Source: Pseudoxanthomonas sp.
Lineage (GTDB): Bacteria > Pseudomonadota > Gammaproteobacteria > Xanthomonadales > Xanthomonadaceae
Assembly (NCBI GenBank): GCA_047601105.1
Contig: JASGJT010000001.1
Span: 492,879 to 556,878 of the forward strand
Reading direction: 5' to 3'
DNA length: 64,000 nucleotides
Within the stretch, counting starts at the first letter, position 1. Every line of letters starts with the position of its first letter. A program made the translations under genes and the position numbers. Below are positions 21,836 to 25,298 of this stretch, piece by piece. The notes under the pieces were generated by a model. That model was given only the letters and a program-made list of their open reading frames with translations. It was not told the origin of the DNA and did no database searches.

Positions 21836-23908
<2,073 letters not shown>

Positions 23909-23943
23909 TGGCGGGCATTAGAGCACATCCGCCAGCCTGCGTT

Positions 23944-24930
23944 TCAGCGCGCCGGCAAGGCCAGCTTTTTGCACTCGGCCGCATTTCCCAGCTTGACCGC
24001 ATCGACCTCGGCGCGGGTCTGCGCCAGTTGGTTGCGCCAGGTACCGGATTCCACGGTCGCTGCATCCAGCGCGCGCAAGGCCTGCGTGCGGCAGCCCAGT
24101 TCGCCCATCGCCGAGGCGTAGTTGTTGGACAGCACCGGGTCGCCCGGCGCGTGGCCCAGGCCATCGCGGAACAGACTGGCGGCCTTGCGCTTGTCGCCGG
24201 TGGCATAGGCCTGGTTGCCCAAGGCCAGGAACACGCGCGGCTCTTCCGGCCAGCGCTGCTGCGCGGCCTCGTAAGCCGGCGTGGCGGCGGCGGCACCGGC
24301 GACGGCTTCGAAATCGGCCACGGCGGTCAGATAGCTGGCAGCTTCGGCCTCGACCGGCAATTCGCCCGGCTTCAGCGCCACCATCGCCCAGCGCCCACCC
24401 CAGTCCCAGGTACGCAAGAATTTGGGCGCGGAAATTTCCATGCCGCGTTTCTTGCCACTGTTCAGGCGAACGCGGTTGCGCTGCGCATCCGCACCGACGA
24501 TCACGGCGTAATGCCACTGCGGCACGCTGCGGGTCAGCAGGTTTTGCAACACCAGCACCGGGTGGCCAGCCTGCAATTCGGCAAACAATGCCTCGGGCGT
24601 TTTCGCCAGCGGATACGGGATGCGCCCGGCACGGCGGGTGGCACCAAGCAATTCGACCTGCAGGCTGCCACGGCGGCCCGGCAGATAAACCTGCGAGGCC
24701 AGGTTTTCCGGCACGGCCTCCACACCACTGGCACCGAGCACCGTGGCCAGTGCGGCGGGGCCACACTGGTAGTCGGTCTGCGGATGGAAGGGGACTTGCC
24801 GCGACAGGTCGATGCCGGCATCGGCAACGCTGCCGCGCAATTGCAGTGGCGGGTTGATGGCGCAACCGGCCAACACGATCAGGGTGGCCCCGGCAAGGAT
24901 CGCCCGGTATAGCCTTCGATGGAGGATCAC
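23944..24930 (-). CDS. Lipoprotein C39-like cysteine peptidase with C-terminal TPRs (PA2778 family)
   Basis: Lipobox LAGC; YQCGPAALATVL (catalytic Cys), WHYAVIVG (His); TPR-like C-terminal third (VFLALGNQAY, LSNNYASAM). Confidence 0.8.
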   Translation of the reverse strand: MILHRRLYRAILAGATLIVLAGCAINPPLQLRGSVADAGIDLSRQVPFHPQTDYQCGPAALATVLGASGVEAVPENLASQVYLPGRRGSLQVELLGATRRAGRIPYPLAKTPEALFAELQAGHPVLVLQNLLTRSVPQWHYAVIVGADAQRNRVRLNSGKKRGMEISAPKFLRTWDWGGRWAMVALKPGELPVEAEAASYLTAVADFEAVAGAAAATPAYEAAQQRWPEEPRVFLALGNQAYATGDKRKAASLFRDGLGHAPGDPVLSNNYASAMGELGCRTQALRALDAATVESGTWRNQLAQTRAEVDAVKLGNAAECKKLALPAR

Positions 24931-25298
24931 ACCTTGTTGAAAACGTTGGTGACGCCCACCAGCTCCAGGATCAGCAACACGATGAACACCACGCCGATCA
25001 CCGCCAGCACGCTGCCGCCGGCAGGCAGGCGATCCATCTGGCCTTGCAATTGCATCAGTTCGGCATCGCTGAGCGAGGCTAGGCGCGCATCGGCATCGGC
25101 CGGGTTCACGCCGTAATGCTGCATGGCCTGGCGCACGTCATCCCGGGCCATTGCCGTGCGCACATCCTGTTCGGCAGCGGCGCGCGCCTCGGCGGACAAC
25201 GCCTGTTGGGTGGTGATGACGCCGGCATGGGCGCTGGCGCAGGTGCCGGAAACCAAGGTGACAGCGATCAGCGAGGCAAGGATGGGCTTCATCAACAT
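24927..25298 (-). CDS. Small exported protein with a C-terminal hydrophobic segment (PA2779 family)
   Basis: Signal peptide ending AHA; LSDAEL...LPAGG then a hydrophobic tail; ATGA overlap with the peptidase gene. Confidence 0.8.
   Translation of the reverse strand: MLMKPILASLIAVTLVSGTCASAHAGVITTQQALSAEARAAAEQDVRTAMARDDVRQAMQHYGVNPADADARLASLSDAELMQLQGQMDRLPAGGSVLAVIGVVFIVLLILELVGVTNVFNKV

Follow-up and report, generated by a model that had tools for sequence, protein, structure and literature searches.

A PA2779/PA2778 gene pair in Pseudoxanthomonas as a plausible peptidase-substrate unit of the bacterial envelope

C39 peptidases are normally found as cytoplasmic, N-terminal domains of ATP-binding cassette (ABC) exporters such as ComA, PCAT1 and LahT. 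A relative with a different address is FapD, from the functional amyloid system of Pseudomonas: this C39-like peptidase is exported by Sec and is active in the periplasm, it does not function without the Cys of its active site, and the work that describes it gives a GG/GA rule for C39 cleavage sites (PMC5557850). Here we discuss a pair of genes from a 64,000-nucleotide stretch of a Pseudoxanthomonas sp. genome (contig JASGJT010000001.1; this whole stretch is called the window, and coordinates are counted within it). One gene encodes a small protein of the PA2779 family and the other a lipoprotein of the PA2778 family of cysteine peptidases. It is plausible that the two represent a variant of C39 double-glycine processing, in which the enzyme would be extracytoplasmic, anchored by a lipid and fused to tetratricopeptide repeats (TPRs), no transporter would take part, and the candidate substrate would be exported by Sec and held in the membrane by its tail.

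The likeness to the exporter domains lies in the papain-like fold and in the conserved Gln, Cys and His residues and, on the side of the substrate, in a candidate site made of a near-invariant Gly followed by Gly, Ala or Ser and preceded by an amphipathic L-S-D-x-E-L helix. In contrast to those domains, the PA2778 enzyme is a predicted extracytoplasmic, TPR-fused lipoprotein that comes without a transporter; unlike the substrates of C39 enzymes, PA2779 has a “leader” of 70 residues, placed behind a Sec signal, and a membrane helix after the site. With FapD the pair shares a Sec-exported C39-type cysteine peptidase that would need no ABC transporter for its work in the periplasm. FapD, however, comes from an amyloid operon of six genes that includes an outer-membrane channel, and it has no known substrate, whereas the PA2779/PA2778 unit consists of two genes, with a TPR lipoprotein as the enzyme and an obvious candidate substrate. 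An earlier note on this DNA had proposed that C39 chemistry is relocated here outside the inner membrane; its point about the missing ABC transporter stands, and periplasmic C39 activity itself is not new, FapD being the precedent (PMC5557850).

A second group of systems invites comparison for its C-terminal layout. In the LPXTG/sortase, PEP-CTERM/exosortase and GlyGly-CTERM/rhombosortase systems, C-terminal sorting signals are cut by dedicated enzymes. As in these systems, PA2779 carries a short conserved motif just ahead of a C-terminal hydrophobic helix that ends in a short basic stretch, and the gene of a dedicated Cys enzyme lies close by. The sorting systems differ by having several substrates per genome, while there is one candidate substrate per genome here, and by employing polytopic enzymes, whereas PA2778 has a papain/C39 fold and is lipid-anchored; moreover, the tail of PA2779 is itself highly conserved.

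A nearly obligate pair of genes

Both genes, like all the features described below, are on the minus strand. The small gene, with 123 codons and a TGA stop, occupies positions 24927..25298 (coding part 24930-25298, stop codon 24927-24929), and the gene of the peptidase, which has 328 amino acids and a GTG start, occupies positions 23944..24930; both are open reading frames (ORFs) with matches to family models (NF033919/PF20332 and NF033920/PF13529, respectively). The start of the peptidase gene and the stop of the small gene overlap by four bases, and because the start codon is GTG this overlap reads GTGA, not ATGA as the earlier note had it; the ORFs lie where it had placed them, and the sequence strings quoted there are all present. 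An AGGA stands 7 nucleotides (nt) 5' of the ATG of the small gene and an AAGG shortly 5' of the GTG, and any start later than this GTG would deprive the peptidase of its signal peptide.

The small protein matches NF033919 (PA2779_fam) with 113 bits against a cut-off of 40, over model positions 4-121 of 123, and Pfam DUF6627 (PF20332) with 84 bits. The peptidase matches the equivalog model NF033920 (C39_PA2778_fam) with 295.5 bits against a cut-off of 150, over model positions 3-251 of 255. Since both NF033919 and NF033920 are matched far over the cut-off, the pair is already catalogued, under the names of two adjacent P. aeruginosa genes, and the locus in the window is an ordinary member that adds no new feature to the family. 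As for Pfam, the peptidase narrowly passed PF13529 (Peptidase_C39_2; 25.7 against 24 bits), missed the gathering score of the sister family PF03412 (Peptidase_C39; 16.5 against 22 bits) and matched the Pfam families TPR_19, TPR_14 and TPR_16. The earlier note had called the pair uncharacterised; this is right as far as experiments go, yet the pair is not unknown, given its entries as NF033919/NF033920 and DUF6627. In the searchable literature PA2779 is mentioned solely as a hypothetical gene beside bswR, and PA2778 in a list of single-nucleotide polymorphisms and as a putative toxin in a preprint on type VI secretion, to which we return below. One literature match to “C39” concerned a C390S mutant and was set aside as irrelevant.

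How firmly are the two genes tied to each other? Among 400 genomes drawn evenly from the class and searched with both family models, the small gene scored over the cut-off in 88 and the peptidase in 86, and all 86 are common to the two sets (Fisher p = 3e-86). Two genomes have the small gene alone: in one the match falls at a contig edge, and the other genome is 62% complete. The peptidase lies directly downstream, on the same strand, for 90 of the 98 small-gene matches in these 400 genomes, and it adjoins the small gene in 79 of 80 named loci, the sole locus with no peptidase match being one that stops 300 bp past the small gene. The two genes are nearly obligate partners, and the co-occurrence on which the earlier reading leaned is borne out. 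Among the 79 loci, that of a Pseudomonadales metagenome-assembled genome (L034:1122-2336) has the peptidase on the opposite strand, convergent with the small gene and abutting it, an arrangement that reflects either an error of assembly or an inversion at this locus.

The named loci were retrieved with a 9-sequence alignment, and as a sample they are biased towards the ILE[LI][VT]GVTN tail. They range over Pseudoxanthomonas and other Lysobacterales, Nevskiales, Woeseiaceae, Chromatiales, Burkholderiales and Desulfobulbales. The module is widespread yet patchy, because 41 of the 301 genomes in a phylum-level sample carry the small gene and it is absent from three other genomes of the family to which the window belongs. 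When the ORFs of the 80 loci were clustered, no conserved third gene emerged; besides the peptidase, only antisense shadow ORFs and lineage synteny were seen, and the housekeeping neighbours (pgi, panC, panD, pcnB, queG, amiC) change by lineage. No ABC transporter is associated with the pair in these loci, as the earlier note had claimed for the locus studied here, and an apparent ABC cluster near the pair was rejected as a single-linkage artefact of unrelated ATPase domains.

Additional copies of the small gene have been encountered as well. Three genomes carry two of them in tandem ahead of one peptidase (L082, G034:C39; L083, G165:C23; L084, G278:C7), and the first of the two copies ends, in L082 and L084, in a plain hydrophobic tail that is shorter and devoid of the [ED]xxGx[TI][ND]xF motif described below. 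Orphan small genes, with the peptidase not within ~1.5 kb, are found at L085, L086 (G150), L087 (G113), L088 (G176), L089 (G045) and L090 (G167). A complete pair is present as well in the genomes that bear orphans, so that several small proteins may share one peptidase.

The enzyme and its candidate substrate

Conservation in the peptidase was read from 52-55 aligned homologues. The protein begins with a lipoprotein signal peptide ending in the lipobox L-A-G-C23 (24862..24930), whose Cys is aligned in all 55 homologues; the residue that follows it is Ala, Ser or Gly in 53 of the 55, Thr and Val once each, and never Asp. Lipoproteins of this kind are sorted to the outer membrane according to the +2 rule of E. 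coli, and this rule predicts that the peptidase is an outer-membrane lipoprotein. A tether of ~20 residues after the lipidated Cys leads to the C39-like papain-fold domain (residues ~44-190; 24361..24801), with the motifs QCGPAALA at 55-62 and HYAV at 140-143. Gln51, Cys56 and His140 are the catalytic candidates; read directly from the codons, Cys56 lies at 24763-24765 and His140 at 24511-24513. The residues that are invariant are Cys23, Gln51, Cys56-Gly57-Pro58-Ala59, His140, Gly146, Trp175, Trp181, Asn269 and Asn270. The last part of the protein (residues ~197-322; 23965..24342) is a TPR domain, recognized through Pfam TPR matches, matches to consensus-TPR profiles and eight helices in the structural model; W227, P228, N269 and N270 are its conserved residues, and it is likely the part that binds the substrate.

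The AlphaFold2 model of the peptidase, with a predicted local distance difference test score (pLDDT) of 95 and a predicted template modelling score (pTM) of 0.88, places the papain-like domain first and the eight TPR helices after it. Foldseek relates this model to 3erv, a C39-like protein from B. anthracis, and to 3k8u, the peptidase domain of ComA (TM score 0.75 on the target, root-mean-square deviation 3.5 Å); the papain-fold relatives also include a pseudomurein endoisopeptidase and phytochelatin-synthase-like enzymes. In a profile search of the PDB, the whole protein matched TPR proteins only, with strong matches to consensus TPRs, and the peptidase domain alone had no match. With the Gln/Cys/His set kept, a ComA-like fold, an invariant lipobox Cys and TPR matches, the C39-type lipoprotein with TPRs announced by the earlier note is confirmed.

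For the small protein, conservation was taken from an alignment of 134 representatives with less than 50% mutual identity. Its Sec signal peptide (residues 1-25; 25224..25298) has basic residues at 4-5, a hydrophobic core and an A-x-A site, A23-H24-A25, followed by G26, with A23 kept in 72% and A25 in 93% of the representatives. The start of the mature chain is conserved at I/V28 and T30. The helical body of the ectodomain (residues 26-75; 25074..25223) is modelled as four helices with pLDDT 93-96 in a homologous pair, and its residues V55, G63, V64 and R72 are conserved at 96-100%, R72 reaching 100%.

After the body comes an amphipathic stretch reminiscent of a leader, L76-S-D-A-E-L...L-P-A-G-G95 (25014..25073), with the predicted scissile site after residue 95 (or 94); residues 73-95 read LASLSDAELMQLQGQMDRLPAGG. 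The positions that stand out in it are L76 (87%), S/T77 (97%), E80 (99%), L81 (84%), L84 (82%) and L/I/M88 (97%), together with P92 (96%), A93 (96%) and G94 (97%) in the linker, the PAGG codons of which are at 25014-25025. Residue 95 is Gly in 69%, Ala in 19% and Ser in 8% of the representatives; GS is also accepted at C39 sites, and the near-invariant Gly with Gly, Ala or Ser behind it matches the GG/GA/GS rule. The conservation of LSxxEL and of GG, which mattered to the earlier note, is mixed: L[ST]DxEL and P-A-G are kept, whereas the second Gly is a Gly in no more than 69%. Residues 95 and 96 co-vary (codon 95 is 25014-25016), in that PAGG is followed by Ser, Asp or Asn and PAG[AS] by Gly, so that two Gly are always found among positions 94-96.

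The chain closes with a hydrophobic tail of 28 residues, SVLAVIGVVFIVLLILELVGVTNVFNKV (24930..25013), a predicted transmembrane (TM) helix with a short K-containing end. The tail motif [ED]xxGx[TI][ND]xF is present in 122 of the 134 representatives, the acidic residue at 112 is invariant, and G115 and F120 reach 98% and 99%. The Sec signal, the helical body, the GG and the 28-residue hydrophobic tail that had been claimed for the 123-residue protein are all there. Tandem and orphan paralogues retain the body and PAG[GA], and some of their tails have degenerated to plain hydrophobic ones. A six-frame scan of the 3.3-Mb genome gave no ORF with a PAGG-plus-TM tail other than this small protein, and for this reason the enzyme has one candidate substrate.

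A candidate cleavage and its rival explanations

In 12-13 of the 80 loci the frame of the small gene continues into that of the peptidase, interrupted by one stop codon and a short spacer, and no sign of biological read-through was seen (L021, L023, L031, L033, L040, L042, L046, L057, L061, L062, L070, L071, L077). The L023 pair, translated through its TGA, was folded as a pseudo-fusion, with an alignment composed of 11 other read-through rows and unpaired rows of each protein. The model has a pTM of 0.85 over the whole, artificially tethered chain; the body of the small protein has pLDDT 93-96, the membrane helix ~65 and the artificial linker <50. By a rough estimate the pTM would be ~0.65 if only the peptidase and TPR parts were rigid, and ~0.76-0.82 with the body of the small protein also placed. 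Because 0.85 exceeds the estimate for an unplaced body, the model supports a specific association of this body with the peptidase to which it is artificially tethered. In 55 pairs, the mutual information between residue 95 and the columns of the peptidase was highest for columns that lie away from the catalytic residues along the sequence, a measure confounded by relatedness.

The features described so far suggest a dedicated juxtamembrane peptidase-substrate pair, in which the lipoprotein peptidase would cleave the small protein at P-A-G-[GAS]; we give this reading an even chance of being correct. The small protein would be exported by Sec and its signal peptide removed after A-H-A25, and the C-terminal hydrophobic helix would tether it, so that its helical domain of 70 residues stands in the periplasm. 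The lipoprotein peptidase would capture this domain, probably by means of its TPRs together with the groove in its C39-like domain, and the amphipathic L-S-D-x-E-L...L helix would play the role of a double-glycine leader. Cys56 and His140 would then cut the P-A-G-[G/A/S] linker a short way outside the membrane, Gln51 serving as the oxyanion residue, and the products would be a soluble fragment of ~7.7 kDa and a membrane peptide of 28 residues. We infer the order of these events from topology rules, and the cleavage step from the type of motif, the conservation of the active site and the fold. The capture step is supported by the fusion model and by the obligate pairing, and the exact bond, the functional fragment and the residence of the peptidase are candidate assignments.

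Several points weigh against such a cleavage. The main difficulty is geometric: how would the enzyme reach the site? The predicted site is at the surface of the inner membrane, whereas the enzyme is predicted on the outer membrane, on a tether of ~20 residues, a mismatch that the earlier note did not take into account. At the active site, there is no invariant Asp or Asn ~16 residues past His140, where C39 enzymes have their third residue (positions 156-158 are L, R/N and S); N130, conserved at 98%, may be a substitute third catalytic residue. Within the small protein, conservation is highest in the tail (mean entropy 1.0 bit in its core against 2.3 in the body), which is odd for an anchor to be discarded, and the LPAGG block of the pseudo-fusion has a pLDDT of only ~72. 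In addition, the searchable literature holds no experimental or functional work on the PA2779/PA2778 pair.

The resemblance to known leaders has its limits too. If residue 95 is taken as -1, L84 and L81 occupy -12 and -15, like their counterparts in canonical double-glycine leaders, while the nearer hydrophobic residues are found at -5 and -8 and position -4 is a Pro, where a canonical leader has its hydrophobic residues at -4, -7, -12 and -15. The L-S-x-x-E-L element lies 8 residues further from the Gly-Gly than in LSxxELxxIxGG leaders, a longer spacing that the earlier note had itself pointed out. None of the Gly-Gly leader families (bacteriocin, Nif11-like, NHLP) matches the small protein; with the excised region and E values allowed up to 10, NF033919 is still the only match. 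Leaders of these families are N-terminal and have no Sec signal, whereas the small protein begins with a Sec signal peptide. Given the different spacing and the lack of a matching leader model, the likeness is one of motif only.

If the small protein is not a substrate, it could be a partner that holds or regulates the lipoprotein, namely a membrane-anchored adaptor, inhibitor or activator, and the real substrates could be other envelope proteins or peptidoglycan peptides. The high conservation of the tail, which suggests a specific membrane function, speaks for such a role, as do the confident placement of the helical body in the fusion model next to a less confident PAGG linker, the pseudomurein endoisopeptidase and the phytochelatin-synthase-like enzymes among the structural relatives, and the mutual information for residue 95, which gave nothing convincing. 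Against it, the most conserved feature on the soluble side is the P-A-G-[GAS] linker, of the type that C39 enzymes cut; paralogues retain this linker even when the tail is degenerate; and the genome has no second candidate substrate bearing such a tail. We regard a partner as fairly unlikely. The view changes if the peptide left in the membrane is taken as the functional product, with the helical domain as a long leader that keeps it inactive until the cut; once freed, the 28-residue peptide could regulate a membrane protein or be membrane-active. Such a role would suit a tail whose TM core surpasses all other segments in conservation, with its invariant acidic residue and with Gly115 at 98% and Phe120 at 99%, but it is at odds with the tandem and orphan copies, which have plain tails without the motif and yet retain the body and the linker. 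A nearby immunity gene, exporter or conserved membrane partner was not found either, and constitutive high expression in P. stutzeri fits a toxin poorly; a functional membrane peptide is, in our opinion, improbable.

That expression is documented for P. stutzeri DSM4166, where the transcript of the PA2779-family gene ranks within the top 3% in both rich and minimal medium, at two growth phases each (PMC10155442). This holds in all four conditions, and the data point to an abundant envelope protein, rather than to a rare regulator or a bacteriocin. The same figure, expected for a structural protein of the envelope, lends something to a sortase-like scheme, in which the cut at P-A-G-[GAS] would leave a thioester that is resolved by an amine of the envelope, belonging to peptidoglycan, a lipid or a protein, so that the helical domain becomes attached covalently. 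The C-terminal layout of motif, hydrophobic helix and short basic end agrees with this scheme, as does a Cys/His enzyme with an acyl-enzyme mechanism, and if the scheme were right the outer-membrane location of the enzyme would be expected instead of puzzling. However, the known sorting systems do not have one substrate per genome, the activity known for C39 enzymes is hydrolysis, and the adduct is a postulate. The scheme is a long shot, and we hold equally slim the chance that the pair is a one-substrate Gram-negative sorting system built on the C39 papain fold, with the 70-residue domain as the covalently attached structural protein. Yet another role for PA2778, that of a type VI secretion system (T6SS) toxin with the adjacent small gene providing immunity, derives from a TraDIS study (sequencing of the insertion sites of transposons) of P. 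aeruginosa (preprint 10.1101/733030), where PA2778 is listed as a putative toxin adjoining a small gene that is depleted of insertions under an active H1-T6SS. The candidate was not followed up in that preprint, and the pair stands amid housekeeping genes, with T6SS genes not nearby; above all, the peptidase has an invariant lipoprotein signal peptide, which is not the route by which T6SS cargo leaves the cell, and for this reason the role is very improbable indeed.

Neighbouring genes and what the family may offer

The surroundings of the pair in the window are not part of the module. Upstream, at a distance of 135 nt and on the same strand, lies the gene of an Abhydrolase_9 membrane protein of 594 amino acids (PF15420 and PF10081; 25434-27218), which falls outside the module because none of the 80 related loci has it, not even those from within the genus. 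On the other side, a thiamine pyrophosphate (TPP) riboswitch at 23809-23912 (Rfam RF00059) was recognized with 54.6 bits, barely above the gathering score of 54.3. It begins 31 nt past the stop of the peptidase gene and is followed by thiC (21836-23785), and given this short distance the promoter of thiC must lie within the peptidase gene or at its very end. Of the 80 loci, only those of the three nearest relatives have thiC beside the pair. A scan of the locus for promoters and terminators found none, and the defence-system models of PADLOC gave no match.

The value of these observations lies in the PA2779/PA2778 family as a whole, and not in the locus of the window. About one in five of the sampled genomes of the class (88/400) carries the module, which extends to other classes of the phylum and to Desulfobulbales. 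On the features of the sequences, it is a plausible, widespread and already named peptidase-substrate unit of the envelope. If the cleavage is true, it would be a second case, beside FapD, of double-glycine-type chemistry outside the cytoplasm, and since the candidate substrate is obvious here, unlike that of FapD, the specificity of the enzyme would be directly testable. The module could also bring to light an abundant envelope protein that is new, or a membrane peptide of small size in which an acidic residue is conserved.

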